Origin: Chloropicon primus | Taxonomy: Eukaryota | Direction of reading: 5' to 3' | DNA length: 64,000 bases | Assembly: GCA_023205875.1 (NCBI GenBank) | Contig: CP060770.1 | Span: 310,001-374,000 of the forward strand | Shown here: piece after piece, positions 3,113-56,350 of the stretch | How positions within the stretch are numbered: the stretch's first letter is position 1 | Layout: each line of letters begins with the position of its first letter | The notes under the pieces: generated by a model | The model's database searches: none | Told to the model about the DNA's origin: nothing | The model's input: the letters and a program-made list of their open reading frames with translations, nothing else | Program-made: the position numbers and the translations under genes

Positions 3113-4108
3113 TCAGATCCCCTGGTACGTCACCCCTGGATTCTCCTCCTCGAACTTCCTTTCCAGTTCGAGCAAGTCGTCCTTGACGTCGCTGAACACG
3201 CTGGGATGCATTCTGTCGTGAAACAGGACGCCTTCGAGGTGGTCGTACTCGTGCTGGAAGATCCTCGCCTCAAGGCCTTCGAAAGACATTCTGCACGTCT
3301 CGCCACTGAGATCTTGGTACTCCACCAGCACGCTCTTGGGCCTCTTGACATCCCCCAGTATCTCAGGAAAGGACAGGCACCCCTCCTCGAACAGAGTCTG
3401 ACCCTTGCTTTTGCTCACGTACCTCGGATTCACGAGCACGGTCTCTTGGTCCTTCTCTGATGCCTCCCCCGTCGGGTTCCACACGAAGAGTCTTACGTTC
3501 ACGCCCACCTGAGGAGCCGCCAGGCCAATGCCTTCGGTGTCGTACATGACTTTGAACATCTCCCGGGACAGAGCCGCGAGCCGGTCGTCGAACTCGGTCA
3601 CTGTCAAGTTGGTAGCCCTGAGCTTGGGGTGAGGATACAGAAGGACTGACAGGGGGGCCGTGTAATTCAGCCCATCCCCTTGGTCCGTATCGCTCCCCCC
3701 GTTCTGCTTCTTCTTCTTCGCGCCCGTCGTCGCCTTTGCCTTGCCCTTCTTGCCCTGCTTCTTCTTCTTCTTCTTGTCCTCGGAAGAAGAAGACCTTCCC
3801 GATGCCTTGCTTTCCCTCTCACTGTCCTCCTTGAGCTCCTGAAGCTCTTTCAGGAACCCCTTGGCCGCGAACATCTTCACCGAGGGGCCAAAGCAACCTC
3901 CCTCTGTTCGACCAAGGCCCCACCAACCCAAGCTCTTGACCACCACACGACTCCTCGCTCCTCCGTTACGCGCAACGCCCGGACGTAACGGACGCGATGC
4001 CGTTGCCGCCGTCCCGCATGCTCGGCACGATGAACATGTGGAGGCCAACGCCCTCGGCACCGCTGCTCCTCGATGAGAAGGATTCCATCTGGAAGCAAGC
4101 TTTGCCAT
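3113..4108 (-). CDS. PDF1B: Peptide deformylase, plastid-targeted (PDF1B-like)
   Basis: Motifs GIGLAAPQVG, EGCLS, QHEYDH; Arg/Ser/Ala-rich transit peptide from ATG 4108. Confidence 0.93.
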   Translation of the reverse strand: MAKLASRWNPSHRGAAVPRALASTCSSCRACGTAATASRPLRPGVARNGGARSRVVVKSLGWWGLGRTEGGCFGPSVKMFAAKGFLKELQELKEDSERESKASGRSSSSEDKKKKKKQGKKGKAKATTGAKKKKQNGGSDTDQGDGLNYTAPLSVLLYPHPKLRATNLTVTEFDDRLAALSREMFKVMYDTEGIGLAAPQVGVNVRLFVWNPTGEASEKDQETVLVNPRYVSKSKGQTLFEEGCLSFPEILGDVKRPKSVLVEYQDLSGETCRMSFEGLEARIFQHEYDHLEGVLFHDRMHPSVFSDVKDDLLELERKFEEENPGVTYQGI

Positions 4109-4733
4109 CAGGAACAATTTCGAAGAAGGATTTATCTTGCTTCTCGTGATGCTTAACGAGTCGACCGACCTATCAATCGAAAGATAATGAGACGCTCTTT
4201 CGTTACGTCCCGGTCTCGACACCCTTTCCTCGCCTCTCTCGCCCGCTATCCTCCTTGAGAACCAAATCAAGGCTACGTCTTCCTTCCAGACTCAAAAAAC
4301 CTTCTACGCCAACGTTGCCGACGAAGCCGGCCAGCAAACACGTCGAGTGAACAACCGACAGAAAGCTCGCGAGACGTAGCGTGCCTTGGTGCGATCGCCC
4401 GCCACTCGAAACGCCCTCAATTCCCTTCACGACCACTCAAACCTCCTGCTCTTCCTTGTTGGTGTGGACGAACGACGACTGGAGGTCGAATTTTGTGGAT
4501 GTCAATTGATCCCGGATGAAACACAGGGAGGAAAGAGAGGCGTTTGGGTGACAAGACGAACAACAAGAAGAAGAAGGCGGTGAAGGTCCCATCCATCCTC
4601 CTCCGTCATCCATGATCCATCCATCCATCATCCTCTCTCCCCCTTTCCTCTCTCTCTCAGCATTCCCATGAGCAACACACAGAGAGAGAAAGACAGACAG
4701 GCAGACAGACAGAGAGAGAGAGCACAGCACGTC

Positions 4734-6026
4734 ATGGACAAGGCACCCCTACCACTGCCTAGGCTGGTCCTCACGGTGGAGTTCAACCTCACCGAGTAAG
4801 TCATCTCTCTCTCTCTCTCTCTCTCTACCTCCTCGTCCGTTACTGGTTTCCCTCCCCACTAACGGCTGCTCTGGTGACTCTCAAGGGTGGAGGAGGAGTG
4901 GCAGGGCAAGGACCATCAGAAGGCTTGCGAGGAAGCGGCGAGGGTCACGTCACTGCGTCCGGTGGACAGGGTGAGGGCAAGGTCGGTGAGGGTGAAGGGG
5001 ACGGCCACGACGGAGGTTGCACAAGCGCATACTTTCCAGACGGACGACGATGGCGTGGACGTGAGGCTCGAGTACTTGTACGGCAGCGATGGGGAGTCCA
5101 TGTGCATGCGGGTGATTGCCAACCTGGAAAGGGTGGATGGGGTGACCTCGCTCAGGCTGGGGCTCCATACCCTGGAAGTCCTGGAGGGAGGGCCCTCCGC
5201 GGTCTCGGGCTCGGCCGGTGGCTTCAAGAAGAATCCACCGTTCGCTTACGGCCTTCGACACACGCTGAACTTTGCGAGGATGATCGCCACCACGCTGGCC
5301 GACTTTGCCCTCGCCCGCTTGGGAGTCGTGTCCACCCTGGGAGCGAATGGGAGCGACGAGATCCCCAACTCCCCGGCGAGCCTCATCGCGTACCACTCCA
5401 AGGCGTCCGAGCCTCCACCAGAGACCGCGTTTCGCCTCTTCGGGGCCAAGGAAGGCGTGGCCAAGCCCTACCGCCAGTTTTTGTCCCTCCTGGAGTTGTG
5501 GGGGCAGAGGCTCGGGTCCTGGGGGTACTTTGTCCTGAACAATTGTTCCCCTTACGAGGTTGGGAAGGTTGTTCCCAGCGAGATCAGAAACGTTCACGAC
5601 ATGCATAGCATGGACAAGCGCTACGCCGGAGCCTTTGACCGTCCTTGCCTCCCTCCAGGGGAGGACGTTTGGCCCCTGAACAACTTTTACCACGTCAGAC
5701 GAATTTTCGTGAACAACTACGGCAGACACGTAAGTGAATTTTTTGTCCTCGCCCTGAGCGGCGCGCGTTGACACAACTGACGCTTTCCTCCCTTTCCTTC
5801 CCTGCAGGATGTGGCCACCAAGGCCAGGGCCACGGCGTTCAAGTGGGATTGGGTTGGGTTGAGCCCTGGCGTGTGGGGTGCCGGGTGCGCACAATTCAAT
5901 GGCAGGTTCTTCATGTGGATGAGGGGGACAGATGCTGGCCTGGACCTCGTTAAGGAAGAAGCGGAGAGGAGCTTTGCGCCTTTGCCTAGCGTGCGGCAAA
6001 TCCCCAAGTCAGCCCTTTTGGTGTGA
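4734..6026 (+). CDS. Hypothetical protein, spliced (main exon ~4887-5729, last exon ~5809-6026); start uncertain
   Basis: Long coding-like ORF 4887-5771 with a GTAAGT donor at 5730 and a CAG acceptor at ~5808; no recognised family. Confidence 0.5.
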
Positions 6027-6535
6027 TTTCAAAGGAGGAAGCATCGCCACCCAAGGGGACCCACTCGCGGTCGGGTACATTAAGCTCTTCCACATATAAT
6101 GGATGCTTGCAAACAATTTTTTTTTTCTTCCTTGTTGTCCTTCCTCAAACCAACCCCCCCCCCTCTCTCTCTCTCTTCATGATGAATTACGATGATGATG
6201 GTGGTGAGACCACTCGTGGAGTGGCACAGAAGAAGGAGAAGGAGGGCAATGGCCTTGAGGCAACCTTGATCCTTGCCTCCTCCCTGCTGATCCCCTCCCT
6301 TCATTCGGAGATCTCCATCTCCATTTTTTTTTCATGCCTAGAGAAATTTTTATTTTTTCTCAGTTCCCTTGAAGGGACTTGAAGGATTGTTGAAACGCTC
6401 GCTCGATCCTTGTGACTGTAACGCACGCTGCGAAACCGATTGTCAGTGTGGCGGGTGGTGGATGCGGAAGAGGGGACTAGGCATCAGCTGTGCTCTCACT
6501 TGTCCAGTCTCATTGGGCTTAGGGGTACCGTGGCA

Positions 6536-7818
6536 ATGGATGGCATCGGCTTGGATTGGATCCTCCTTGACCCTCCCTATCCGGTTGCATTCTACCCGAT
6601 CGAGCCTTCCGTTATGGAGGTGCCCAGCGATCCAGTGGGCGTGCCTCGCGGTGGCACAAACGCTGGCACGATCGCCACGGAACCCGAGGGACCCTTGCAG
6701 CGCCTGAATCGGCTCAAGAAGTCCACAAACTCGCCCGAGAAAGTGGAGGAAGACGCTCGAGCAGACCATGGAGCTCGGAGGCCATTGCAGGGTCAGCGAC
6801 GTGGGAGGGGGGCGAGGAATGAGGGAACCCGAAGGTCCACGAGGAGGAGGAAGATCGCAAAGTCCTCCGACAGGGGGGGGCAGGCCAACGAGAAGGGGGG
6901 GACCACGAGGGAACTGAGAGGGATCTCGGCGCACCGTAACACTGGAAAGTGGGAGTCTCACCTTTGGAACCCCAAAGTGAAGAGAAAGGGTGGACGGAGG
7001 AAAACTGGGGTGCAAGTCTACGTAAGTGCGCGGCTCAACGTTGCCGTCTCGACTCTCAGTCGCCCGCATTGCAAACAGACTGACCATTGCATTGCTTCCT
7101 CAAACCCGTTCTCTCGTGGAACAGCTGGGCCAGGTAAAAACAGCCGTCCGCGAGCTCACGGGCTTGGAGCCGATTGCACTGACTTGCTGTCCCTGTCCAA
7201 CTTTCTCTGCATTGCCCTTCCTTGCATCGGTTGCAGTTCTCGACACGGGAGGAGGCCGCGCGCACTTACGACAGGGCAAAGCTAAGTCAGTTCAGGAACG
7301 AAGTGAATGCGCTAATCCAACAGGCTGCGGAGGTGAACAGCAGCGCACAGCTGGATGAGTGGTTCTCCGAGAACATGAACTACAGTTACGAAACGTACAA
7401 AGACGAGTTTCACAACGACATCTTGACCTGGTAAGCAAACCCGTCTTTCCCCCCTTTCTTGTCCCTTGTTGACAGGCTGAAACCCGGAACGAACTCTTGA
7501 ACCCTCTTGTGCAGGGAGCATGACGTTTACATCGCGAGGCTGAAACACGTTATGGGAAACGGCAAAGGGTTCAAAGGCGTCAAGGAGGTGGTCGTGGAGG
7601 GCGAGACGAAGTTCGCTGCTTCGATCACGTACCACAAGTGGGACGCAGGGACCTTAAAAAAAAACAAGATGACCAAGGAGCTCGGTGTCTTTCCTACTGA
7701 TGTTGAGGCGGCCAAGGCCTACGATAACGCTGTGCTTGAGTTCAAGAACGGCAAGGGCGTGAGAAACTTTGAGAAGTACACGTACGAGAGTGCGTGCGGC
7801 GACTCGGGTGGATCCTAA
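6536..7818 (+). CDS. Double AP2-domain transcription factor; exons 6536-7021, 7125-7133 (micro-exon), 7237-7430, 7515-7818
   Basis: AP2 repeat 1 RGISAHRNTGKWESHLW...QVY-LGQ-FSTREEAARTYDRA; repeat 2 FKGVK...ELGVFPTDVEAAKAYDNAVLEFKNGKGVRNF. Start codon is tentative. Confidence 0.88.
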
Positions 7819-7986
7819 CATGTACACACTCACTCTGGAGAAGAAAATGTTTGAATGCAACAGTAAAGTTTTTGACTCAGAACTTCATTGGAGATCATGT
7901 GGCTGCTTGGGTGCAGGTTTATGATGCAGAATAATCTCAGGTTCGGTCTGCTCAGACCCACGCCGCCCTCTGCATTATTCATGAGG

Positions 7987-8511
7987 ACCTCTTGCTTCTC
8001 CTTCCGTCCTCCAGCCACCATCATCCTCTACCGGGATGGAGTCTATCCTCCACCATCACTCACCATCAACTCTCTCCTCTCTCTCCATCTCTGCTCTGAT
8101 TCATCGATCGATCGATCGATCGGGATTCAGAAAAAGGAGCACCGATGACGGACGAGGTCACCTCTTGCTTCTCCTTCCGTCCTCCAGCCACCATCATCCT
8201 CTACCGGGATGGAGTCTATCCTCCACCATCACTCACCATCAACTCTCTCCTCTCTCTCCATCTCTGCTCTGATTCATCGATCGATCGATCGATCGGGATT
8301 CAGAAAAAGGAGCACCGATGACGGACGAGGTCACCTCTTGCTTCTCCTTCCGTCCTCCAGCCACCATCATCCTCTACCGGGATGGAGTCTATCCTCCACC
8401 ATCACTCACCATCAACTCTCTCCTCTCTCTCCATCTCTGCTCTGATTCATCGATCGATCGATCGATCGGGATTTCAGAAAAAGGAGCACCGATGACGGAC
8501 GAGGTCACCTC
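7987..8511 (+). repeat. Tandem triplication of a 173/174-bp unit that includes the ArfGAP start codon
   Basis: Units start at 7987, 8160 and 8333 and are identical except for one extra T in copy 3. Confidence 0.97.
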
Positions 8512-8626
8512 CGGCATGGCTTCCGCTCCACAGGACGACGACGATCACCATCACGATCGCGATCGAAGCTCCTCACCAAAAAAAGACGCGACGTTTGACG
8601 TGCATTCTCACCCTCCATCCTCCAAC

Positions 8627-8657
<31 letters not shown>

Positions 8658-11372
8658 TGGACAAAAAGTGTTTGGAATTCTTTGACGAGCTCGAGGACAG
8701 TCCAATGTTCAAGCAGCAAGCGGTGGACCTCGAACAAGGTGAGTGACGAGAAACGTAACGCCTCCCTTTCCGTTACGCTCCCTTCCTTCCTTCGCACGCC
8801 TGACGGCCGTTGTTTTTCTCGTCCTCTTGGCATGCAACGCGTCATGCGATGCTGATGCTGATGCTGATGAATAGGAGCGGATAGGTTGAAGGAGAGGGTG
8901 ACCAAGTTACTGAAGGGAGCGAAGAAGTATCGGGACGCGTTGGACGCGAGCTCAGCATCTCAGCAATCGTTTTGCAAAGTTTTGAGAGAGTTTTGTGGTG
9001 ACGTGACGGATGAGGACTCGATGGAGATTGGTGCTGGAGTGATCATACGATACATATCTGCATTCAATGAGTTCTCCTCGTTTTATGATCTGCTTCGATC
9101 ACAAGTGAACTTGCTGATGATAGATAGGCTGGATGAGGTGCTTCTTGGGCCCATGGGTGCGGTGAGGGATGGGAAGAAGCGCGTGGAGAGGAGCGCGGGG
9201 GACTACGACACCGCCAGGAGGAAGTTCCTGTCTCTGCAGAGGACGGTGCAGGACGAGGTGGTGGCCCAGGCGGAGAAGGATCTCAAGAATGCAAGGAATG
9301 CTTACGATGCGGATAGGTTTGGGCTGGCCAGAACGCTGCTTTCGATCCAGCACACGAAGAGGAGCTTTTTCGTGGAGACGACCAGCGGCTTGGTGGACGC
9401 GCACATGAGGTTCTTCAAGCAGGGTTTTGACTTGATCAGACAGATGGAGCCGTACATCCACGAGTCCCTTGGGCAGGTTCAGGACTGGAGGGACAGCGCC
9501 GACAAGGAGATGGACACGTTTGACGACAGCATTGCTGTTTATCTTGAGAACGCGAGCGGCAAGGGTTTGGCCCACGGTAGCAATGGGAACGAGGGGAACG
9601 ATGACCACGAGTCGGCGTCATCGTCTCAGGAAGTCACAGGGGCTCGCCACAGACACCAGCGGTCCATCTCTCAGGGCAGTCTGGGTAGCTTGGTCTCATC
9701 TCCCATGGGAAACACGGGGGGCCCAGTGCAGATGAGCGCGGCCCAGAGCCAGATGGCTCAGTCCATCGAGGCCAGCATGAGGCTTCACCATCAAAAGGGG
9801 GAAGTCGTGATTCTCAAGCAAGGCTACCTTCTCAAGAGGTCTTCCAACATCAGGGGAGATTGGAAGAGCAGGTTCTTTGTGCTGGACTCCAAGGGATCGC
9901 TGTATTACTACACGAAAAACTTGACCTTCATAAAGTCGAACGCGGCGACGACTCAGCAAAGGTTTGACCAGGGCCACGCCGGGGTCCCTCACGAGACTGT
10001 GGAGCTCCTGACATCGACGGTAAAGCTGGACGCCGATGACGACGATATGCTGAGGTTCTGCTTCAGGATTGTTTCTCCCATGAGAACGTACACGCTTCAA
10101 GCGGAGAGCGAGGCGGATAGGGCCTCCTGGGTGGGCGTGATCCAGTGCGTCATCGCTTCCCTCCTGAATGGGGTGTCAGAGGGCAAGGACGAGCCAAAGA
10201 GAAAGCTGGGAGGCATGGAACGGGGGTATGATTCACCCGGGCTGGCCTCCACCTTGTCGACTCACAGCATCTACACGGACGTGGATGTGGACGGAGAAGG
10301 TTCAGACTTGGGGAGGGAGGCATCCGAGACTGCCTACATGAGCGCGAATTCTTTTCACACCGTGCTCAGCGATGCGATGAGCAATGAGGATAACCCTGTT
10401 CTCGACGAGCTGCGGTCCATTCCAGGCAATGGGTGCTGCGCGGACTGCGGCGCCCCCATGCCAGATTGGGCGTCGTTGAACCTCACAGTCACCCTCTGCA
10501 TCGAGTGCTCCGGGACGCACCGTAAACTTGGTGTGCACATCAGTAAGGTGAGGAGCATAACTTTGGACGACAGTGCCTGGGACGAGACTACTCTCCAAGT
10601 GTTCAAAGCAGCAGGAAATGAATTTGTGAACACCATCCTCGAGAAGAGGCTGAAGGAGAAGACGGTGAAGGACGACTCGTGGCTCTGGAACGCGGACGAC
10701 AACGAGCCTATCGTGAGCCCGGACCTCTCCTCGGGAAGGGGTAGGGCCATGTCCGTTCAGATGCTGAGGAAGCCAAATCCAAACGACCCTCTTGGGATGA
10801 AGGAAGAATTCATTAGGGCAAAGTACGTCGCCAAGGTCTTCAGGGACTCCTCCCTGGAAGCTCCTCAGGAATCATTCTGGAATTCAATCTTCAGTGCGGA
10901 CTACCGAGGAATCATTGGCTCCATCTTGCAGGGAGCCAATCCAAACGAGACTCACGCGCAGAGGCTGGCGAGAAGCGTGTTTGATAAACGCGAGAAGCAA
11001 GCGCAAAGCGCGGCCACGGCAATTTATGGCAGGCCTGTAACGTCCGCTGGCAGTTCTGGGGCAGTTCCGGAGATGATGGACCATGCGAGTCTGGGCCTGA
11101 CGGCTCTGCACATCATGTCAGAACTGAAGGACAAGACCCTCCTTCTCCTTTTGACCCTGTGGACGGACGACATCAATGCAAGGGACGCGTTCGACCGAAC
11201 TCCAGTTCACTACTGCATTCTCAACCAGTGGGACGAGGGTGCCAAGCTTTTGCTCAAGAGGGGTGCGGCCAAAGAGTCCAAGGACGTGTATGGCATAACG
11301 GCTCTTGAGATGGCCATGGGCAGGGGCCAATTGACGGACGAGGGGCTGTTCAACATGCTTGCTCAAGGGTAA
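8492..11372 (+). CDS. ACAP-type ArfGAP (BAR-PH-ArfGAP-ankyrin; AGD1-4/VAN3-like); exons 8492-8738, 8875-11372
   Basis: LEDSPMFKQQ BAR start; PH LKQGYLLKRSSNIRGDWKSRFFVLD; ArfGAP zinc finger CADC...CIECSGTHR; C-terminal ankyrin repeats. Confidence 0.93.
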
Positions 11373-11451
11373 AGAGGTTTGAAACTCTGCTACAAAAAAG
11401 AACTAAATACTTATACAAAAATATATATATCATTCCCTAATTCGCTCAAGA

Positions 11452-14400
11452 TTATTCGTACTCAAGCTCCTGCAGCTCGAGGTCCATCAAGGCCATTTCC
11501 TTGATCAACTCCTTTCTTTCCTTCTCGTACTCCTCCTTCTCGGTCATGACCTTCTTTCCCTCGTCTCTGCTGCTTGGCCTCTCCTTCTCCAGCTTCATCT
11601 TCAGTGCAATCTCCCCCCGCTTCGTGGAGTCGGCGCCAAAGATGGATAGGACGTTATCAATCTTGCTCTTCTCTGCCTCTGCAAGCTCCTCTCGGATTCG
11701 GACTTGGCTAGAGATGTACTTCTCTTCCAGCTCACGCTTCATTTCCGAGCGTTTCTGATCGATAAGCGCAAGTCTCGCAGCCCTCTCCTCCTGGAGGCGG
11801 GCCCACATCTCCTCTTCGGCATCCTTGATCAACTGCTGAGTCTCCTCGTGCATCTTTCTTCGGTTCGCCTCGAGCTCTATCTGGACTCTCCTCTGGTTGT
11901 CTTCGAGCTGGGCCTCCATCTTCTTCTTCAGCTTGGACTCTGCCCTCTGCCTCTCGAGCTGCCTCTGCTTGTACACGTTACGTCCATGAGAATGCAGCCT
12001 CTCGCCCAAAAGATCGAAGTAGGCCTCGATGTCCGCGAGTTGGTTGTCCACAAAGGCGTCATACTTGAGCTCAATCTCGTTGAACTTGCGCTGCTTGCTC
12101 TCCCTCTCCAACTTCCTCTTCTTGAGGTCAAACTCTGCTTCCATGATCCGGTCCCTGCCACGTTGGCGGCTGACCTTATCCACTCCAAGCAAATCCCTCT
12201 CCAGCGTCTCGCGAGCAATCCTCACCTCGTCTTGAAGCTCGAGCTTGTTCTCCTCGAGCTGGGCCTTCTGCTTCTCTACAAAGTCGTCGAATTCCTTCTG
12301 CTCACGCTCGGCTAACTTTTCGTTCTCAACTTGCATCCTCTGGAGCTTCTCATCAGCGGCCAGCTTGGAAGACTCCAGCGCAAGGTTGAGCTGAGACTCG
12401 TAGTCAGCCCGCTCCTTGACCAACACCTCAGTGTGCTCCTGCACCTCCTTGGCGATTCTCTGGGTGAGGCGCTCAAGGAGGTTCACACATCGTTTCTGAT
12501 TGAGGTCACAGTCCGCGTTCTTTGCCTCTGCAGTCTCTCTCTGCTTCTTGGCATTCTCCAAAACCTTTTCCTTCTCGGTGATTACGCGCTCCTGCTGGTG
12601 CTTTGAGTTCTTCGACTCTCTCGCACTCTCATTGAGCTTCTCAACCAACACTTCCAGATCCCTCTCCTGGCGGTACCTCACCTGGTTCTCGTCCTTGGCC
12701 TTCTGCTCATTGGCCTCAAGCTCTGCGTGGGCCGCTACCTCCTCCTCCTCCAAGTCTGCGAAGTAGCCGTCGTACTCGAGCTTCAGCTGCTTCTCCTCTG
12801 AGTCTAACTCGGCGTGGAGATCCACCTTCTCCTGCTCACAGGCCTCGAGGAATCGCCTCCACCTCTCGTGCTGCAGCACTCTGCGGTGCTCTCGTGTCTG
12901 CTGAGCCTTGGCCGCATCGGCTCTGTGCTGCTCAGACATTTTGAAGGCCTCCTCCGCATCGCGTTTGAGGCCCTTCACCTCCTCACTTGTGCAGTCCGCC
13001 TCGTGGTCCATCTGGGCACTTGCTATCGCACTCTTCGCCTGCTCCCTGGCCAGCGAGCACTGCTTCTCGAAATCAACAGAATACTCTTGCCACTTCTGTT
13101 CCACGTCCTCCTTTTTGACTTCCATCTCCTTCAAGTCACCCTCCCGGTGGACCTCTGCAGCTTTCATCTTCCTTTCGTACTCGGCCTGCTCGCTCAGAAT
13201 CCTCTCTTCGTTCGCCGCAAGGTTGTTGTGGAAGAAAGGCAGCTTCTGCTCGGTCTTTTCCTTCAACTCCGCGTTCTCCCTCATCGCGTCCTTGCGGATG
13301 TTGTACACATTATTGATCTTGGAGTGCAAGGATTCCAGGAGATCAACGCTTGCCTGCTCGTCCACCTTACGCTGATCTTCCATCTGGGACATGACGTGGT
13401 CTTGCTCCCCAATGCTTTCGGCGAGGGACTCGATGTGCTGCTCCCTCCTTTCCCTCTCTTCAACCATTTTTTGGTTGAACGCAACCAGGTCTACGCGTTT
13501 CCTCGCCAAGTGCTCTCTCGCGTCGACCATGTCCCTCTCGCACTGCTCGTGATCCTCCCTCTCGCTCACTTGGAGCTGGTCCTTCTTCTGCGCAAAGTGC
13601 TCCTCAGTCTCCTTCTCCAGTATCTGGACTCTTCTCAAGTCAGCCAAGGCCTCCTTTTCGGCGGAACTCCACCCGGAGCTCTGCTCGTTCGAGTACTCCC
13701 TCAAGTGGGTAAGGGAAGGAAGGCAAGCCTCGCTCAAGTCATGCAGCATGTCATGGCACTTGGCATGCTTGGTGATGTAAGCCTTCCTCGAGGCGTGGAG
13801 CCTCTCCCGCCTCTGGGCCACCATCTTCAGCTTCGTTTCCTTCTCATCTTCCAGCTCCTCCATTTGGATGCCCAGCATCTCATTCAGGGCCGAGATCCTC
13901 AACCGCTTCTGCCTGTCAATCCTTCGCTCGACGCGGTTCACATGCTCCTCGTCCAAGAGGCACTCCTCCTCCTTGGCTTTGATCTCGACGAGCAGACGCA
14001 GCTTGCGTCGGGAAAGCTCAGAGTACCTTCCTCCCTGGTTCAAGCAGTCGTTCAGCGAAGGCGGTGCTTCGGCAATGATGTCAATCTCTCGGAGCACAGG
14101 GTCTTCCTCTGACAGCCTTTCGATCTCCCGGGTGAAGGACAGGGGGTCCTCCTCATCGGCCACGGGTCCCTCCTCCTTGCCGGGGGTGCTCTCTGGCATC
14201 GTGCCCTCCTGGGAACCCTCCGCAACAACCGCTTCCTCGTCAACCTCTCCCCTCGGTCCCTCTTCTGCGATTGTGGTCAAAGGCAAAGACTTGGCACCAG
14301 ACTTATAAAACTCTTTCAGCTGTTCGCACAAGTCTGCCGCGGCGTGGTGCTCTGCGTTGACTGGTCCGTGGTTTCCTGTCACCTCGGAGGCTGGGACAGT

Positions 14401-31587: not shown

Positions 31588-34106
31588 CACTACGGCCTTC
31601 TGTCTCCATGTTGGAGGTTTTCCCCTGTTGGTGGGATTCCAGTGTATACCAGTTTGGTCACACCCAAAGGACAACCCACAAGGCGTTTTCTCGTGTTCTC
31701 ACTTGCTGGACAAGGCCAATCTATAGTTACGAGGAGTTACGAGGAGGGCAGCGAGTGAAACCCTAGCAGTCATGGCGCGATCAGGGAAGCGCCGTAAGAA
31801 AAAGGAGAAGCAGGGGAGTGGCTCGACGAGTTCCACAAGGAGGTCGCACTCTGGCGAGAGTCATGCTCAGGGCGCTTCGAAGTCGGGGCAGGAGTCTCCG
31901 ACGACGAAGCGGCCGTTACGTCGGTTCTGGAATCAGGGCTTGCAGTTGCTCTACTCGTTGTGCCTGCTTCCTATCGCGGACGACCCCGCCTCTGCGGGTG
32001 AGGGTTCGAGCACGCCTCGCAAGAAGCGGGGGGGGAAGCGGAAGGAGAAGCCGCTGGACGACCCCGCCTCTGCTTTCGAGGAGGGTTCGAGCACGCCTCG
32101 CAAGAAGCGGGGGGGGAAGCGGAAGGGGAAGCCGCCGGAGGCGGCTTCCTCTGCGGGTGAGAGTTCGAGCTCGTCAGGCAAGCCTCGCAAGAAGCCTCGC
32201 AAGAAGGGCAAGAAGAAGAACAAGAAGAAGGGTAAGAAGAAGAAGAACAAGAGGGGGAAGAAAGCAGGGAAGCAGCCGGGTGGCTTGGCGGACGACAGCG
32301 TGAAGAAGACCTGGTTCTCATCGATCAAGAGAGAACTTGAAGAGGTAAAGTGTCCGAAGACGGGATGGAGGTCGTGCTTGAACCTTCCAGAAGATTCTGT
32401 GGTATCCGTCGAGACATTGCAGTCGCCCGCCAAAAGGAAGAGGGGGCAGAAACTGAAGACCTCCAAGCTATTGTCGGAGCGAACGGTGATACGGACGAGG
32501 AAGCTGAGGATGCGCTTGAACCCTGAGCAGGCGAAGTGCCTTTGCAACTGGATGGGAGCTGCGCGTTTCACATACAACAAGTGTTTGGAGGCGGTCAAGA
32601 AGGAGGGTTTTCCGCTGGTTTGGACCGTCCTGCTGGACAGATTTGTGACGGCCAAACCGCGACGCCCTGAGGTCTTTGAGGGGCTGGAGAAAGAGCTGAA
32701 AGAAATCCAATGCTCTCCACGGCCATGGACAAAACAGGAGGCAGAGCTTTTCGCGGCCAGAGAGAAGAGACTCGAGAGCCAAATTGGAGGCAGACGATTT
32801 CGCGCCGAAGTGGCCAAGGACCGGGACTACGTTAGCGGGGCCTTTGTAAATCAGAAGCATCCTTGGCTGAAGGAAACCCCCTGTGCCATCAGACAAGCTG
32901 CCGTGCGAAGTCTCATCAAGGCATGGGATTCGAACACCGCGAAGCAGGAAGCGATGAAGGAGCGCGGCGAGAAGAAGGGGCACCGCTTCGTTCTCAAGTA
33001 TCGTCAACGTCAGCAACCGAGTTCTTGGACTATTGAAATTGATGCAAGAGAGTTAAAGAACGTGGAGACGATCGAAAGACCGAGAACGAGACACAAGGAT
33101 GACAACAAGCACAAGAAACGACGCAAGTGGACCAAGCTGGAGGTGTTCAAGGAGAAGATGGCCGGCGGGCCCCTGTACTTGACGGAGGAGATCCCCGGGG
33201 GCAAGATCGAGGGTGCCGTGAAGATCACAAGAAATCGCCTTGGGCAGTTCCACATGCACATTCCCATCGCGACGCCATGGGATCGCCTGCCACCCCTGAA
33301 GCCTGAGAACAAGCGGAAGGTTGTCGCCCTGGATCCGGGAGTCAGGACCTTTCAGACGTCGTACTCGCCGCAAGAAGGCGTCGGGGAGTATGCCACGGGC
33401 GAGCGAGGCTTCGCGAGGCTGTTCAACCTCTGCTGGAGGATTGATGAGATCATTTCCGAGCGCAAAGACCCAAAGGTGAAGCTCCCTTACCTCGACCGCC
33501 GCGACTTGAAGAGACAGCAATACGCCTGCATGGAGAAACTTCGAGGTCTGACGAACGAGCTTCACAAAAAGGTAGCCAACGATCTATGCAGGAGGTTCGA
33601 CACAATCCTCCTCCCGGAGTTCAAGTCCCAAGACATGGTGAAGAAGAACAACAACGGGAGACGCCGAGTGATCAGGAAGAAGACGGCTCGCACGCTCTTG
33701 ACGTTGAGGCACTATGCGTTCAGAACGTTCTTGGCTTCCAAGGTGCTCTTGCACGGCAGTGAGCTGGCGATCGTGACGGAGGAGTACACCTCCAAGACCT
33801 GTGGCAGGTGCGGACACATCAAGAAGAACCTGGGTGGAGCAGAGGTGTACAAGTGCCAGAAGTGTGGCTTCAAGTGCGGTCGGGATGTGAACGGGGCACG
33901 CAACGTCCTCCTGAAGCACTTGCGTCAACCAAAAAGTGTGTAACTCCTCAGGGTTGCACATACGTTTGTTAGTACGGGCTGCCGTGCGTGGGCGGAAGTA
34001 TTCGTTCATGTACGGTGGAATGGTCGTGGTAGGGCCGAATTACCCTGCCGAGAAACTTACAAACTCGGTGAAACGACCTTTGCAGAAAACTAACAGGTAA
34101 GTAGTG
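31588..34106 (+). mobile_element. Putative non-autonomous Fanzor-carrying element (boundaries tentative: CACTAC...GTAGTG, GC flanks)
   Basis: Contains only the Fanzor ORF and a structured 3' RNA. Termini are 6-bp inverted CACTAC (31588-93) / GTAGTG (34101-06), each flanked by GC; a 10-bp direct repeat AGTTACGAGG x2 lies at 31725-31744. No transposase present. Confidence 0.35.
31772..33943 (+). CDS. Fanzor (eukaryotic TnpB-family RNA-guided DNA endonuclease), Fanzor2-like, 723 aa
   Basis: OrfB-type HTH RTRKLRMRLNPEQAKCLCNWMGAARFTYNKCL; RuvC-I VALDPGVRTF; Pro at the canonical RuvC-II Glu position (TILLPEF) with an alternative Glu in VTEEYTSKTC; zinc ribbon CGRC...CQKC; RuvC-III GRDVNGARN; K/R-rich NLS-like N-terminus. 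Confidence 0.95.
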   Translation: MARSGKRRKKKEKQGSGSTSSTRRSHSGESHAQGASKSGQESPTTKRPLRRFWNQGLQLLYSLCLLPIADDPASAGEGSSTPRKKRGGKRKEKPLDDPASAFEEGSSTPRKKRGGKRKGKPPEAASSAGESSSSSGKPRKKPRKKGKKKNKKKGKKKKNKRGKKAGKQPGGLADDSVKKTWFSSIKRELEEVKCPKTGWRSCLNLPEDSVVSVETLQSPAKRKRGQKLKTSKLLSERTVIRTRKLRMRLNPEQAKCLCNWMGAARFTYNKCLEAVKKEGFPLVWTVLLDRFVTAKPRRPEVFEGLEKELKEIQCSPRPWTKQEAELFAAREKRLESQIGGRRFRAEVAKDRDYVSGAFVNQKHPWLKETPCAIRQAAVRSLIKAWDSNTAKQEAMKERGEKKGHRFVLKYRQRQQPSSWTIEIDARELKNVETIERPRTRHKDDNKHKKRRKWTKLEVFKEKMAGGPLYLTEEIPGGKIEGAVKITRNRLGQFHMHIPIATPWDRLPPLKPENKRKVVALDPGVRTFQTSYSPQEGVGEYATGERGFARLFNLCWRIDEIISERKDPKVKLPYLDRRDLKRQQYACMEKLRGLTNELHKKVANDLCRRFDTILLPEFKSQDMVKKNNNGRRRVIRKKTARTLLTLRHYAFRTFLASKVLLHGSELAIVTEEYTSKTCGRCGHIKKNLGGAEVYKCQKCGFKCGRDVNGARNVLLKHLRQPKSV

Positions 34107-34125
34107 GCCGGCCTTCCTCTCCGTG
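33944..34125 (+). ncRNA. Candidate Fanzor omegaRNA (scaffold ~33960-34105 plus ~15-20 nt guide)
   Basis: Five nested hairpins with many G-U pairs, closed by the long-range stem 33964-33973/34089-34098, directly downstream of the Fanzor stop. Ends are approximate. Confidence 0.7.
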
Positions 34126-34293
34126 TTTCTCTCTTTCAGTGGAAAGGAGAACTTGCCTTTGTGCTTCCAGTATTGACTGTGATTTCCCTACCGTCCTTTC
34201 GTGACTTTTCTGTGTGCTGTTTTTGATCTGATGTCTGAACACCATAACACTCCACCAGATCTTTCGTTTTCATCCTGGCCTGTTCCTCTTCTT

Positions 34294-34339
<46 letters not shown>

Positions 34340-34519
34340 CGCTCTCTCTCTGTCTCTCTGTGTGTGTTGAAATCCATCAGGAAGAGGGGCGGATGACGAT
34401 GCCATTGATGGATGGATGGCTTGGCTTGGTGGCGGTGCCTGGAGAGGTGGAGGGCACGGGCATCTCCCCCCCCTCCTCACTGCTCTCTCGGCTCGTTTCC
34501 GTGGCGACTCTTTTTTCTT

Positions 34520-37333
34520 TTAGTACAACATATTCTTAGTTTTCTCGAGCTGCTTGGACACGAGCTTGGTGTACGTCCCCTCGAGCTTCATGAGCGAGTC
34601 GTGGGTGCCCCTCTCTGTCACCACGCCCTTGTCCACGACGCAGATTTGGTTGGCGTTTACGACCGTGCTCAGCCTGTGGGCCACCAGAACGACCGTATAC
34701 TTGTGCTCCTTGCTCTCCAAGAGCTGATCGATGGACTCCTGCACGAGGGACTCGCTCTCCGCGTCGAGGGCGCTCGTTGCCTCGTCCAGCAGAAGGAGCT
34801 TGGGCTGGCGAAGCATCATCCGGGCGATGGCAATCCTCTGCTTCTGGCCACCGCTCAGCCTGACGCCCCTCTCCCCAATTCTCGTTTGGTATCCGCTAGG
34901 GAAGCTCGTGATGAAATCGTGGGCATTGGCAGCCTTGCACGCTGTGACGAGGTCCTCCTGGGTGTACTCTCCCTCCTCGCAGCCGTACAAAATGTTCTCC
35001 TCAATCGTTTTGGCGAACATCTGGGTCTCCTGGGAGACGTACCCCACGTGCTTGTGGAGAGCCTTCAGGTTGAAGCTCTGCAGCTCCCTCCCCCCGATCA
35101 GTATCTTGCCGTTCGTGGGGTCGTAATACCTTAAAATCAGGGATATCATCGTGGTCTTTCCGCAACCGGAGGGGCCGACAAGCGCACACACTTCGCTGGA
35201 CTCCATCTTGAGGTTGATGTTCTTCAAGACGACGACGTCAGGGCGCATCTGGTACACGAAAAAGACGTTCTGGAACTCCACGCTCCAGGACATCTGACTC
35301 GTAGCGACCACGCCCGAGCTCGGGTCAATGTCAGGCAAGGAATCCATCAAGCTCAGCACCCTTTGGGCCGCCCCAGCCGCCTTGGTGAACGAATTCATCA
35401 CGCCCTGCAAGGATTGGTAGCTCGACTGAATCATGTTCCAGAACCTCAGGTACGCATAGAGCATTCCGATGCTGATGGCCTTGCTCTCGTTCTTGCTCAT
35501 GACCAGGAGTCCCCCGTAAAGAAGAATCAGCGTGCTGGCACCGTAATCAATTAAGTTTGACAACAGTATCGTTCCCGCGTTGGCAAAGGCATCTCTGATT
35601 CCCCTCTTCAGAGCCTCCTTTGTTTCCTGCCTGTAACGCTTCAACTCCACGTCCTCGGTGCTGAAAGCACGGACCGTTCTGATGTTCGCCATGGCCTCCT
35701 GGGCGATCGAGTTGGCCATGCCAATGAAAGTGAAAATCTCTCTGTTCAACCTCTGCGAGAAGACCGCATACTTGGAAGTCAAGTGAATGATCGGGAGCAT
35801 CGTCGTGAAGGCAAGCATGGAGAGCCTCCAGGATATCACGAAACACATGATGAGCCCCCCAAAGAAGAAGAAAATGCTCTGCAGGGTGGAGCCAAGGAGG
35901 TTGCTGATCGGCTGAAGCATCGCGTTGCAGTCCCAACTCATGCGGGAAATGAGGTCCCCCGTCTGGGCAGCGTCATAAAACGCGATGTCCTGCCTTATTA
36001 TCCCCTCAAACAACCTGTTCCTCGTCAAAAATGACAGCCTCCGCTGCACCACTCTGAAGCACAAGCTCCGGCACGAGCCGAAAACCCCGGAAGCCAAGGA
36101 GAGAACGACAAAGATGCGAATGTTGTGAAGGAAGGAAGGGTGGTTCTCGTCCTTGATGGCATTGAACACGTGCCCACTGAAGATCGGGGACATCAAGTTC
36201 GTGCCAGAGGCAAGCAGCAGGGACATGAACGCGCACGCAAGGAGGCGCCACTCGCTTGACGCCAGCCACAGAGCCCTATTGAAGTACTCCATCGGCTTCA
36301 GAGTGACCTCACTCTCACTTCGGACACCCTTGTCACCCCTGACACCCCCCTCACCCTCCACCCTCGCTGTCTTGCTCCCCATGCACTTCATGCAAATATC
36401 AAAATCACAAGCCCAGCACCTGTACCCCTTCAGGATCCTCTTCCTGCACAAGTCGCACGTGTGTCCCGTATTCGCTTTGCTGAAGTACAGCGGGTGGCCG
36501 TGGACATCGGGCTTGTCGATTCCTTGCTCTTTGGCGAAGGACTCAATCATCATGCAGCAAAATATGGACTCTGCGTTTATGCAGATCACCGAAAGCACCA
36601 TGAGGGACGGAAAACTCAGCGAGTGCTTGAACGTGCTCACGTCGAAGCAGACCGCCTTGATGCCCGAGTACACCTGAAACAGAGTGCTGAGCCCAAAAAT
36701 CAGCGACTCCGCAATGATCTTGTTCCTGTTCGCACGCTTCACGTCCTTGTAGAAGTGCAAGGCCTCCGCAGCCTCGATCTCTTCCTTTATCCTCTGGTGA
36801 CCCTCACCGCTTCCCCTCTTCTTCCGGTTCCACAAGCCACAGCAGGCCCGGCGGCCGTTGCCCTCGTCGTCATCTGCCACCCGGCAGTGGTGGCCATTGC
36901 CAGCGTGGTGTGCCGCAATGGGGAGCAACGGCTGCCTCAGCGTGTGGTTTGGAGTCCCCCCGTCCCTCTTCGCCCCAAAGAACCCGCCCACGCCCCCTCC
37001 GTTCACAACCTCCTCCTCCGCTTCCGGCGCGGCGGCCTTCGTGCTTCCCGTCACGACTCCCACAAACGTTAGCAGAGGCAGCACGAACATCCTCACGAGG
37101 GCCAGCACCAGCAGGTCAAGGGCCAACTTTTCAAACAGCAAGCTCAGATCCCTCTTCTTCACAAAGTCTTTCCAGGTCTGTGGATGAGCTTTGAACGAGT
37201 TCTGTGTCAGCAAAGCACTCACAGTCACATCCAAGACAAGCGCCGCGAACAAAAACAAGGGAAGCAGCCTCTTCACTCCCTTGGACACCACCAGGGAGCT
37301 CTGGTCAACCGTCCTCTTCCTCCCTCGACCCAT
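34520..37333 (-). CDS. ABCB half-transporter (TAP/MDL-like) with an extra N-terminal TM region and a Cys/His zinc-finger-like segment
   Basis: Walker A GPSGCGKT, Q-loop GYVSQE, signature LSGGQKQRIAIAR, Walker B LLLLDEATSALD, H-loop VAHRLST; ABC membrane domain. Confidence 0.93.
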   Translation of the reverse strand: MGRGRKRTVDQSSLVVSKGVKRLLPLFLFAALVLDVTVSALLTQNSFKAHPQTWKDFVKKRDLSLLFEKLALDLLVLALVRMFVLPLLTFVGVVTGSTKAAAPEAEEEVVNGGGVGGFFGAKRDGGTPNHTLRQPLLPIAAHHAGNGHHCRVADDDEGNGRRACCGLWNRKKRGSGEGHQRIKEEIEAAEALHFYKDVKRANRNKIIAESLIFGLSTLFQVYSGIKAVCFDVSTFKHSLSFPSLMVLSVICINAESIFCCMMIESFAKEQGIDKPDVHGHPLYFSKANTGHTCDLCRKRILKGYRCWACDFDICMKCMGSKTARVEGEGGVRGDKGVRSESEVTLKPMEYFNRALWLASSEWRLLACAFMSLLLASGTNLMSPIFSGHVFNAIKDENHPSFLHNIRIFVVLSLASGVFGSCRSLCFRVVQRRLSFLTRNRLFEGIIRQDIAFYDAAQTGDLISRMSWDCNAMLQPISNLLGSTLQSIFFFFGGLIMCFVISWRLSMLAFTTMLPIIHLTSKYAVFSQRLNREIFTFIGMANSIAQEAMANIRTVRAFSTEDVELKRYRQETKEALKRGIRDAFANAGTILLSNLIDYGASTLILLYGGLLVMSKNESKAISIGMLYAYLRFWNMIQSSYQSLQGVMNSFTKAAGAAQRVLSLMDSLPDIDPSSGVVATSQMSWSVEFQNVFFVYQMRPDVVVLKNINLKMESSEVCALVGPSGCGKTTMISLILRYYDPTNGKILIGGRELQSFNLKALHKHVGYVSQETQMFAKTIEENILYGCEEGEYTQEDLVTACKAANAHDFITSFPSGYQTRIGERGVRLSGGQKQRIAIARMMLRQPKLLLLDEATSALDAESESLVQESIDQLLESKEHKYTVVLVAHRLSTVVNANQICVVDKGVVTERGTHDSLMKLEGTYTKLVSKQLEKTKNMLY

Positions 37334-53744: not shown

Positions 53745-54329
53745 TGTAATGGTACCGCTGAGAGAGCTTGTGTTCGTGGTATCGGTCGACAAAAGGTCTC
53801 GAAACTTTTCTGTTCCCCTCGTCCCCCGTCGTTGTTCTTCGCGAAAAGTTGCCGTTCAACGCACAAAGAGTCTTGGTCAAGTCAAGTGTACCAATTTCAT
53901 CTTACTTCCAGGAAGGGGAAAGGGAGGGAGAGGAGAGAAATGAGTGTACGAAGTTGGAAGTTCAAAACAACGTCTTGCAAAACGAGTGTCAAAAGGACGG
54001 AGAGATACGCGCAGAAGACGACGAAGAGATGAGTGAGGACTATACTGGCAGAAGTGAGACTAACTGAGGGGAGCGGGAAGTCGCACTCTCTCTCCTTGTC
54101 CTTCTCTTCTCTCTGCCAAAGGATGCATTTTTGTGGTGACGATGGTGGTGTGGGGGGCACATGGACAGGCAAGCCATGGCTGGAAGCACTGCTTCGTGCA
54201 CTTGAAACAAGTTCCAAGCTCGAAAGAGTTGGTCAAAAAATGCGGCCAAGGGCGATAGAGACCCGTGAAGGTTTAGGTTTAGGCCCAGCTCAAGGGAGTG
54301 AGACTCTTCCTCACAGTGAAGGGTCGATT

Positions 54330-56350
54330 GATTGAGGTCAATTGGATAATAACTGATTGGTATTAGTAATGGGTGCGGTGGACTCGGTCAATCATAAACG
54401 GGTGAATCACTGTCTATTGCCCACCCTCTCATTCGGGGCTCGTCCATCGAAAAACTTCGTACCAGTTGGCACCAGTCAGGATACATAGAAGATCTCCCGA
54501 AAAACAAAATGACAAAATGTAGAATTAAGCTTGTGGCTCAACGCCAATCTTGATGAGACTGGAGTAAGCGCAGGTGCACGGGATGCAATACCACACCAAA
54601 CGCAGGAATTCACGGATCAAAACTATTACACAACAAGATAAAAGAAAAAAGAATCGATGTTTTGGCTGACTCTATCTTCAGCTGACGATTCTATCTCGAT
54701 CAAACACGCAAAAATGACAAATTAAATTAAGTTCCACGGCACCTCTTTTAAGAATCAATTTGCAATATACGTAAAGGCTTATCATTCAGACGTTTGCGTT
54801 TCGTTCATGATCACGGAGTCACATTCATAATTCCTCTCTGAAATCAATCGAGTCCAACTTTGTTCTCGAATAAGCGAGTCGAAATGAAATCGTGGAAATC
54901 GAGATATTCTCTTCTTGTTCTATTTCCTGGAAGCAAAATAGAAAATCGATTTATCTCTTGTGAGATAGCATATGATGCTCACCAAGCTATGACAATATTG
55001 GACAAGAATGCAGAAGAGAAGCATAAACACTCGAACAAATATTTTAGAATATTATATGCATCGATTTTGGGAAAAAGCAACGGGTGTGCAAGAAGCAGAG
55101 TGACAATTAAATATTTTCCGAAGCGTGGATTACGCACTTTCTCTTGGTAATTCTCTCTACTTTCTATCTCTACTGCAATGAATCGGAAAAACATTATCAG
55201 TATATGTTTCATAAGATAGAATAATTGCCAATATACTTTTGTCCTTCTTTACAGCTTAGACATCAATGCATACTTTAATTTTAGATGAGTCAACGATTAT
55301 GCACAATAGAGTAAAAATGAATATTTATAATAAAGAAAATATTACGTTTTGACGATAAATAAAATGATGGCGGAAGTTAGCATTGAATGATTTTAAATAT
55401 TTGCTCTTGTGTGAATATGATAAACTTTGAATGCAAGAAATTGAAACAATATGAAGTAAATGTTGCGGTTTTACGCAAAAGACAAAGATATTGGGTTTGA
55501 AGAAATAAGTCAAATAACGAGAACCGCGACAAAAAGCATCAAATTCATCGGCTTTGCACTTGGACATGCTGCTGCGTAATTTGAAAGACAAGCATTGATG
55601 CCATAAAATATTGTTGAAGCCAAATTGAATTGATGCATTGCTGTTCTTTCGGTGATGCCCTGTACCAGCCATTTGGAATGGTTTGAGAAATAGTTCGGAA
55701 GACGTTTCAGTTCTTGCAATGTACATAGTAAGAGGAATATCATTTTGTGTGCAAGATATTATTAATGTATATTCCAGTTCAAGTGCTAGAAAAGGCACTA
55801 TTTCATAACTGCTGCTGCAAGAAGGAAGAGGCATCCTTGAAAAATGCCAGCGATCTGTGTCTTTGCCCGCAGCTTGTCGTTTCTTTTCCATGCATGCGAT
55901 ATAATGAGTCCGCACGAGTTATTTGTGTACTGGTTCAGGGCACGTAAAGGTGAATTCGGCGGTGCCTCTTGAGTTTATAAAGTCGCCCTAGGATGCTGGA
56001 TATTGGCATCTTCTTCTTGACTCTGCTTGTAGAGCAATTGGCAACAATGAAAAACCGAACAACCTTGCTGTTTCTCTTTGATCGCCAAAGGACGATGTCC
56101 TTAACCGTGCAACATCTCTCGCTTTTGAGGAATACGCAGTGGGGCAAGATCGTCCTTTAGTTGGGATTGGGGCCCTGCAAGAGGGAGGCTCTCACTATCC
56201 CATAACAGTGTCACCACAATAATAAAATTCCGCAGAACAAGAACAAAGGTTAAAAGAGAAAGTAAAGTCGTCGTGTACTTGACGTTTCGCCCTGCACGAA
56301 CACACGACCACCGACCCCGTTCGCCAAGCTTTGCTTCTCTGGTACTTTCG
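54330..56350. other. AT-rich, apparently gene-free island
   Basis: Lines 55321-55440 are ~23-25% GC by manual count, against a GC-rich gene background; only short unrecognisable ORFs. Confidence 0.85.

Follow-up and report, generated by a model that had tools for sequence, protein, structure and literature searches.

How does a Fanzor nuclease obtain a useful guide once it has been captured by a cut-and-paste transposon with variable target-site duplications (TSDs)? This question is raised by a Fanzor2-encoding element in a 64,000-nucleotide stretch of the genome of the alga Chloropicon primus (assembly GCA_023205875.1, contig CP060770.1, positions 310,001 to 374,000, forward strand), which we refer to as the window and in which no second copy of the element was found. 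The family is already described: the passages on C. primus in the family paper (10.1101/2023.08.09.552727; PMC10711439) concern the same family as the window element, a Fanzor2* in a non-autonomous element with degenerate terminal inverted repeats (TIRs), a variable 5-nt TSD and no known mobilizer, so that neither the Fanzor2* family nor its TG..CA element with a 5-bp TSD is new. In the text of both versions, an omegaRNA, an internal scaffold end and a splice site are unnamed, and the strings "splic" and "intron" have no match. What is new here is a splice donor on the end of the omegaRNA scaffold, with transcripts that branch there. On balance we favor the view that splicing at this scaffold-end donor removes the 153-nt end of the element and attaches host sequence, which would serve as the guide.

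The segment 33936-34096 is strongly structured as RNA on one strand: z is -4.57 on the plus strand and -0.74 on the minus strand (40 shuffles), none of 49 background windows reaches z -3.5 (lowest -3.48; 12 shuffles each), and neighboring segments are unremarkable. It is made up of the following parts.

33936-46/33951-61, plus strand: 5' hairpin of the scaffold, 11 bp, spanning the Fanzor stop codon (pair probability 0.97).
33967..33973, plus strand: 5' strand of the long-range helix (pseudoknot equivalent), with seven Watson-Crick pairs to 34089-34095.
33979-96/34001-18, plus strand: 18-bp hairpin with seven G-U pairs (pair probability 0.97).
34022..34078, plus strand: stable hairpin 34027-34050, a weak enclosing helix and a weak fourth hairpin (pair probabilities 0.97, 0.44, and 0.18, respectively).
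34089..34096, plus strand: 3' strand of the long-range helix and last scaffold bases, with the register taken from relatives and the contig branch point.

This structured RNA is almost certainly real and ordinary in kind. Because of its 3' position, its strand-specific fold and the conserved long-range helix with a G:C pair at -2, 33936-34096 is likely the omegaRNA scaffold of the Fanzor2, which is predicted to bind it. A few compatible variants are found among element copies: G33936A turns a G-U pair of the 5' hairpin into A-U, so that the pair is kept, and C34036T falls in the loop of the stable hairpin. A subfamily in sequencing runs X3 and X7 carries 12 coding changes, leaves 33937-33983 unchanged and has a different sequence from 33984 on that replaces the long hairpin. 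No Rfam family matches the structured RNA, and there is no group I family among the five matches up to E 5. A single query of viral contigs gave no relatives' DNA, and an alignment query gave 80 metagenome and 74 viral loci; there were also three weak prokaryotic matches. Among all of these, no relatives of ~50-95% identity that are alignable in the RNA and available as DNA were found, the best segments of the metagenomic and viral relatives being at most 57% identical with an RNA that is not alignable. The motif TGTAA at 33939-33943, which we take to resemble a green-algal poly(A) signal, overlaps the Fanzor stop and is buried in the 5' hairpin, where it could be a candidate switch between mRNA and omegaRNA precursor.

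A sequence-only reading of the locus had already proposed an omegaRNA scaffold here, within the limits 33944..34106. Its 163-nt stretch does fold better than shuffled sequence, as had been suggested as a check (plus-strand z -3.02, with 2 of 200 shuffles as good), and its pointer to RNA-level structure in the Fanzor sense is borne out, the minus strand folding no better than its shuffles (z 0.03, equalled by 101 of 200). All five helices that it named, and a closing stem, can be drawn in the sequence where it put them; they differ in how far they form. The hairpin 33972-87 has a pair probability of 0.0, its 3' arm being captured by the 18-bp hairpin, and the divergence of the X3/X7 subfamily after 33983 alters that 3' arm and leaves the 5' arm unaltered. 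The hairpin 33988-34009 survives as part of the 18-bp hairpin, the true hairpin being longer (33979-34018, seven G-U pairs). In the proposed multibranch domain the hairpin 34028-49 is solid (0.97-1.0), but the enclosing helix reaches only 0.0-0.44 and CCGAG/CUCGG only 0.0-0.18, and hairpins 34028-49 and 34048-68 compete for 34048-49. Seven of the ten closing-stem pairs are Watson-Crick, with a probability of 0.88 when the 5' hairpin is included and 0.0 when it is not, but the outer three are G-U pairs that reach across the splice junction described below. The limits are corrected to 33936-34096, the hairpin across the stop codon having been overlooked. The scaffold proposal thus stands for position, strand-specific fold and the G:C(-2) helix but not for a canonical layout in which the next 15-20 nt are the guide; taking the bases directly after the scaffold, at the end of the element, for the guide is not supported, as the element continues for 153 nt and a splice donor follows 34096.

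That the scaffold ends at 34096 is indicated by comparison. In ApmFz2, according to the passages of PMC11832414, bases -4 to 0 are paired by the 5' part of the RNA, with G:C(-2) among the pairs, and in those of 10.1101/2023.08.09.552727 a comparable long-range pairing is required for ISXfa1. Of 97 loci, 64 had a C-terminus that could be read. For a register table we chose nine loci whose ends are set by the point at which copies diverge, plus two placed by analogy. C is found at -2 in 9/9 of the former, from three families; in several of them that strand has a pairing partner upstream, a segment that begins with G and differs in sequence, and the two others fit by analogy. An automatic search found at least six Watson-Crick pairs at the expected offset in 6/12 rows, one of them a T-run, and chose other partners in L090, L092, and L026. 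In the window, G33968:C34094 corresponds to G:C(-2) of ApmFz2, and C falls at -2 in the window only when the scaffold is taken to end at 34096, which makes 34096 the last scaffold base. The scaffold end therefore does not coincide with the right end of the element (34096 versus 34249), and because that end lies 153 nt 3' of the structured RNA, read-through cannot make a flank-derived guide.

At exactly this boundary there is a donor.

34097..34102, plus strand: spliceosomal 5' splice site GTAAGT.

The boundary reads CAG/GTAAGTA (the slash marks the scaffold end), a near-perfect complement of U1. On both strands of the 64 kb, GTAAGT occurs 11 times and CAG/GTAAGT once. Several of the other GTAAGT sites resemble host intron starts by eye, with YTRAC ~25-45 nt before a YAG, and two other genomic copies of the element retain the hexamer and diverge soon after it (PMC6731263 Supp. 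Data 8). Contigs from X3, X5, X6, and X7, which are probably RNA runs and come from three studies, were examined over 33860-34290 (25 of 36 records). The main contig stops matching at 34096 in X3, X6, and X7, and at 34097 in X5, whose partner starts with G. Five loose-end rows at 34096-98 lead to four different long partners, one of which is common to X6 and X7 and thus to two studies, and short branch nodes mark further branches at the donor. Contig depth, a poor measure of level, changes across the donor from 282 to 34, 28 to 0, 1888 to 0-105, and 1280 to ~170 in the four runs, whereas DNA depth does not fall (7248 to 10021 and 9749 to 12094 in X1/X2) and is flat to 34249. We consider it very probable that the donor at the last scaffold base is used by the spliceosome. 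In two annotated gene models, P0135 and P0004, the Fanzor C-terminus continues into host exons located downstream, those of a SET-domain protein in P0135; this is a hint that the element may be spliced to neighboring genes.

What follows the donor looks like an intron that is without only its AG, as far as its sequence can tell.

34097..34249, plus strand: 153-nt right-end segment, predicted intron body without an acceptor of its own (from sequence and contigs).
34257..34258, plus strand: first AG of the right flank, predicted acceptor for the window copy.

The mean host intron is 152 bp long. Candidate branch sites lie at 34173, 34223, and 34228, with YTRAY found only 3' of the last internal AG, and from 34171 to the right end the segment is free of AG; an 80-nt AG-free stretch occurs in 1.6% of the 80-mers of the window and in 4% of composition shuffles. 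In the four runs no contig joins the donor to either internal AG (34138-39, 34169-70). Among readable flanks, 4/6 have an AG within the 5-nt TSD against a background of 0.26 (p ~0.04, calculated by hand and post hoc), an enrichment that is suggestive only; the X6 flank row, which begins with AG, was excluded from this count as a mixed consensus of two contigs (agreement 0.68). AG opens the TSD in two of three heterozygous insertions. The lack of RNA cover at 34250-34290 was discarded as evidence, since the strain may lack the window insertion.

In the mechanism that we propose, one RNA polymerase II transcript would run through ORF (open reading frame), scaffold, right-end segment and flank; donor, pyrimidine tract and branch site would come from the element, and the AG, in most cases the first beyond its end, would come from the host flank. 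The Fanzor would then bind the scaffold, and the RNA would be trimmed to a guide of ~15-20 nt. Every spliced guide would lie behind a genomic AG, because the acceptor AG precedes the guide match. ISXfa1 cuts after GGG and not after its own scaffold end CGG (passages of 10.1101/2023.08.09.552727). If this IS607 rule holds, the target-adjacent motif (TAM) would share the last two bases of the scaffold and not the third, i.e., nAG other than CAG. Empty and occupied alleles would be told apart only where AG starts the TSD, and at such sites cutting would bring back an element that had been excised. The reversed insertion calls at chr3:123680 and chr6:369520 (PMC6731263 Supp. Data 8) have 25 and 26 extra bases by the right end where the TSD predicts 5; these may reflect ~20 nt lost from the empty allele at the cut distance, or an imprecise caller. 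The full version of the proposal, in which the spliceosome writes the guide, each copy is reprogrammed by the next host acceptor, the AG doubles as TAM and the ~20-nt gaps are in vivo cut scars, is put forward tentatively, with our own expectation somewhat short of even.

Several observations weigh against the splicing-made guide. No joint to 34259 was seen in the four runs, and the starts of the four partners were not found in the 64-kb window; for these two reasons the position of the acceptor, and its use in cis rather than in trans, are presumptive. The TSD is without an AG in 2/6 flanks. If the AG falls within or past the TSD, a 3-nt TAM does not differ between the two alleles, which leaves no cut or a self-cut, and the window copy is such a case. 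In the chr6:369520 call there is a hint of a scar where the site is CAG, contrary to the notion that CAG is not a TAM. Unspliced continuation is present in X3 and X7 among the records examined. Please note that the RNA status of X3, X5, X6, and X7 is a guess and that contigs give no strand, ends or level; the DNA loose ends cover 24 of 171 rows, and the X8/X9 contigs extend past 34096 by only 15 letters.

These points feed four other explanations. The splice may only finish the Fanzor mRNA, supplying its 3' end from a host exon, and may even disarm the system, as guides behind CAG would cut nothing. No obvious end signal follows the scaffold (TGTAA, a presumed signal of this kind, occurs within 31609-34600 only at 32845 and 33939), the P0135 and P0004 models have just such a structure, and self/non-self logic fails at most insertion sites. 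A donor of this kind would be free to lie anywhere past the stop, yet it sits exactly on the scaffold-end base, and the family, still polymorphic to judge from three heterozygous insertion calls, has kept both its catalytic triad and its scaffold intact; we regard this explanation as unlikely. The unspliced contigs of X3 and X7 would suit a working omegaRNA that is a minor unspliced form, with a fixed guide from 34097 onward directed against a virus or an autonomous partner and an amount limited by splicing; fixed-guide TnpB systems are mentioned in 10.1101/2025.08.27.672191. No unspliced contig was found in X5 or X6 among the same records, however, and the copies vary from ~+7 (T34105G; two error-prone copies) while the donor hexamer is kept, which fits selection for a splice site and not for a target; a fixed guide is improbable.

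The branching could instead lie in the DNA, if some copies ended at an old IS607-type scaffold end that abuts host DNA and yields read-through guides. The runs may hold DNA, and the DNA loose ends come with the limit given above. The reverse complement of the scaffold end 34090-34095 matches the left end 31609-31614 at 5/6 positions, against 4/6 for the true right end 34244-34249, and the scaffold end may possibly be an older element terminus. If the break came from an inner inverted-repeat end, it would fall after 34095, but G34096 is retained in every branch; a perfect donor follows immediately, DNA depth stays level as far as 34249, and the whole segment is present in 3/3 full genomic copies with a readable right side, which leaves this version quite improbable. 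Diverse partners, none of them in the window, would also be expected if the donor were trans-spliced to acceptors of unrelated host pre-mRNAs, giving a genome-wide guide pool unlinked to insertion sites. Some 25 dispersed copies suffice for several partners, however, one partner recurs in two studies, and the segment has a complete cis-intron anatomy; we give trans-splicing very little credence.

The limits of the element were drawn from contig depth, loose ends and insertion calls.

31604..31608, unstranded: left TSD copy, CTCCA (sequence; step in DNA depth at ~31606-31609).
31609..34249, plus strand: whole multicopy non-autonomous element, 2641 bp, TGTT..AACA.
34250..34254, unstranded: right TSD copy, CTCCA (sequence).

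The termini are TGTT at 31609 and AACA at 34249, the perfect inversion being 4 bp only. Summed depth of the DNA contigs (X1/X2) is ~4000-13700 inside the element and ~70-290 in the nearest flank bins. Loose ends at 34249/34250 match the right end in 3/4 of the probable RNA runs, and the same element ends recur in PMC6731263 Supp. Data 8, in three heterozygous insertion calls (sequence cells of up to 400 letters). With a 5-bp TSD and no TnpA, the element is not of the eukaryotic IS607 type; it agrees with the Fanzor2* elements defined by TIR and TSD in being multicopy and non-autonomous, with a degenerate TIR and a variable 5-nt TSD. The TG..CA ends and the 5-bp TSD point to an integrase-type mobilizer, if the termini are a reliable guide. 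A solo-LTR (long terminal repeat) reading, suggested by the same TG..CA ends and 5-bp TSD, was rejected, as nothing beyond the termini is in its favor. Homozygosity of most copies was discarded as evidence of homing, the haplotypes differing by only 0.05%, and so were the insertion lengths in PMC6731263 Supp. Data 8, which contain large consensus errors.

In the same data, the chr17 insertion call is compatible with an ordinary TSD, its empty allele being intact. A 31.7-kb deletion call, chr17:327257-358983, spans the interval between a new insertion site and a further copy that is oriented alike; it is either recombination between copies or a mapping artifact. Elsewhere in the window, GC content falls to 0.40 at 54001-56000, compared with ~0.55 in the remainder, with no convincing ORF there.

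The protein encoded by the element belongs to Fanzor2 by sequence and by predicted structure, and a role as RNA-guided nuclease is predicted.

31772..33943, plus strand: Fanzor2 ORF, 723 aa, with a basic N-terminal tail, HTH_OrfB_IS605, RuvC and a zinc finger.

Domain search found HTH_OrfB_IS605 and a Cas12f1-like TNB domain; the match to the guided-TnpB profile, 92.8 bits, is slightly below the curated cut-off of 100 bits. Aligned to ApmFz2, the RuvC triad is intact, with D521 (DPG, RuvC-I), a C-terminally shifted RuvC-II E670 and D705, and the zinc finger has its CxxC pairs at 677 and 695. ApmFz2 is the closest solved relative by sequence (E 1.2e-19) and also the first Foldseek match of the predicted structure (9b0l, E 5.9e-14; predicted template modeling score 0.70); Fanzor1 structures appear only from rank 39, placing the modeled fold nearer Fanzor2. 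The protein is 98% identical to C. primus proteins annotated "IS605 transposase" and falls in a cluster of 46 members; 25 such genes are listed for the C. primus genome, with RNA-seq depths of 0.7-88 (PMC6731263 Supp. Data 6), and the family is merely mentioned in the passages of PMC12633428. An 81-nt tandem repeat at 32000-32154, in the part coding for the basic N-terminus, differs in copy number between family members. At the locus the single Fanzor ORF is flanked by DHHC and ABC genes, with no serine recombinase TnpA.

Compared with known systems, the element combines features that have been found apart. With ApmFz2 (9b0l) and ISXfa1, i.e., with canonical IS607 Fanzor2/TnpB, it shares the shifted RuvC-II glutamate, an RNA that starts near the stop, long hairpins, and a long-range helix that ends in G:C(-2) and is followed by two scaffold bases. 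It differs from them in having a TSD and no TnpA and in a scaffold that ends in CAG instead of CGG, 153 nt inside the element. The mollusc Fanzor2* MmeFz2 is likewise a Fanzor2 captured by a TIR/TSD element, although the passages of 10.1101/2023.08.09.552727 treat the mollusc and C. primus captures as independent. Its TAM is TAG, and a TAM ending in AG is also predicted for the window element; MmeFz2 differs in its fixed TTAN TSD and in being reprogrammed at the 3' flank, with no splicing in these passages (PMC10432273). IStrons (IS605/IS607 with a group I intron) resemble the element in that a single transcript is used both for splicing and as omegaRNA and that the scaffold end carries a splice site (passages of 10.1101/2023.11.20.567912). 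An IStron is excised whole by a group I ribozyme; the donor here is of the GT type and internal. There, the scaffold end is a group I acceptor and splicing destroys the guide RNA (passages of PMC13565253), whereas in the window element a spliceosomal donor occupies that position, and the guide would be created by splicing. Introners are DNA transposons that provide a donor and are able to recruit the AG of their TSD (passages of PMC11282704), but they are spliced out whole from host genes, whereas here only the right-end segment would go, from the element's own transcript. Fanzor introns have been reported in coding regions (passages of PMC10530073). We found no earlier report of a spliceosome-made Fanzor or TnpB guide in the literature searched, outside which most subscription papers lie.

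The published account gives no RNA for the C. primus element, and the scaffold-end donor is a testable answer to the question posed at the outset, with 33936-34096 defined as the correct scaffold for this nuclease. C. primus offers a natural setting for Fanzor action: the alga is diploid and compact, grows in culture, expresses ~25 copies and has three insertions in the heterozygous state. If the proposal is true, it would invert the IStron case and place guide choice under the control of splicing, and splicing would do in RNA what IS607 recombination did in DNA.

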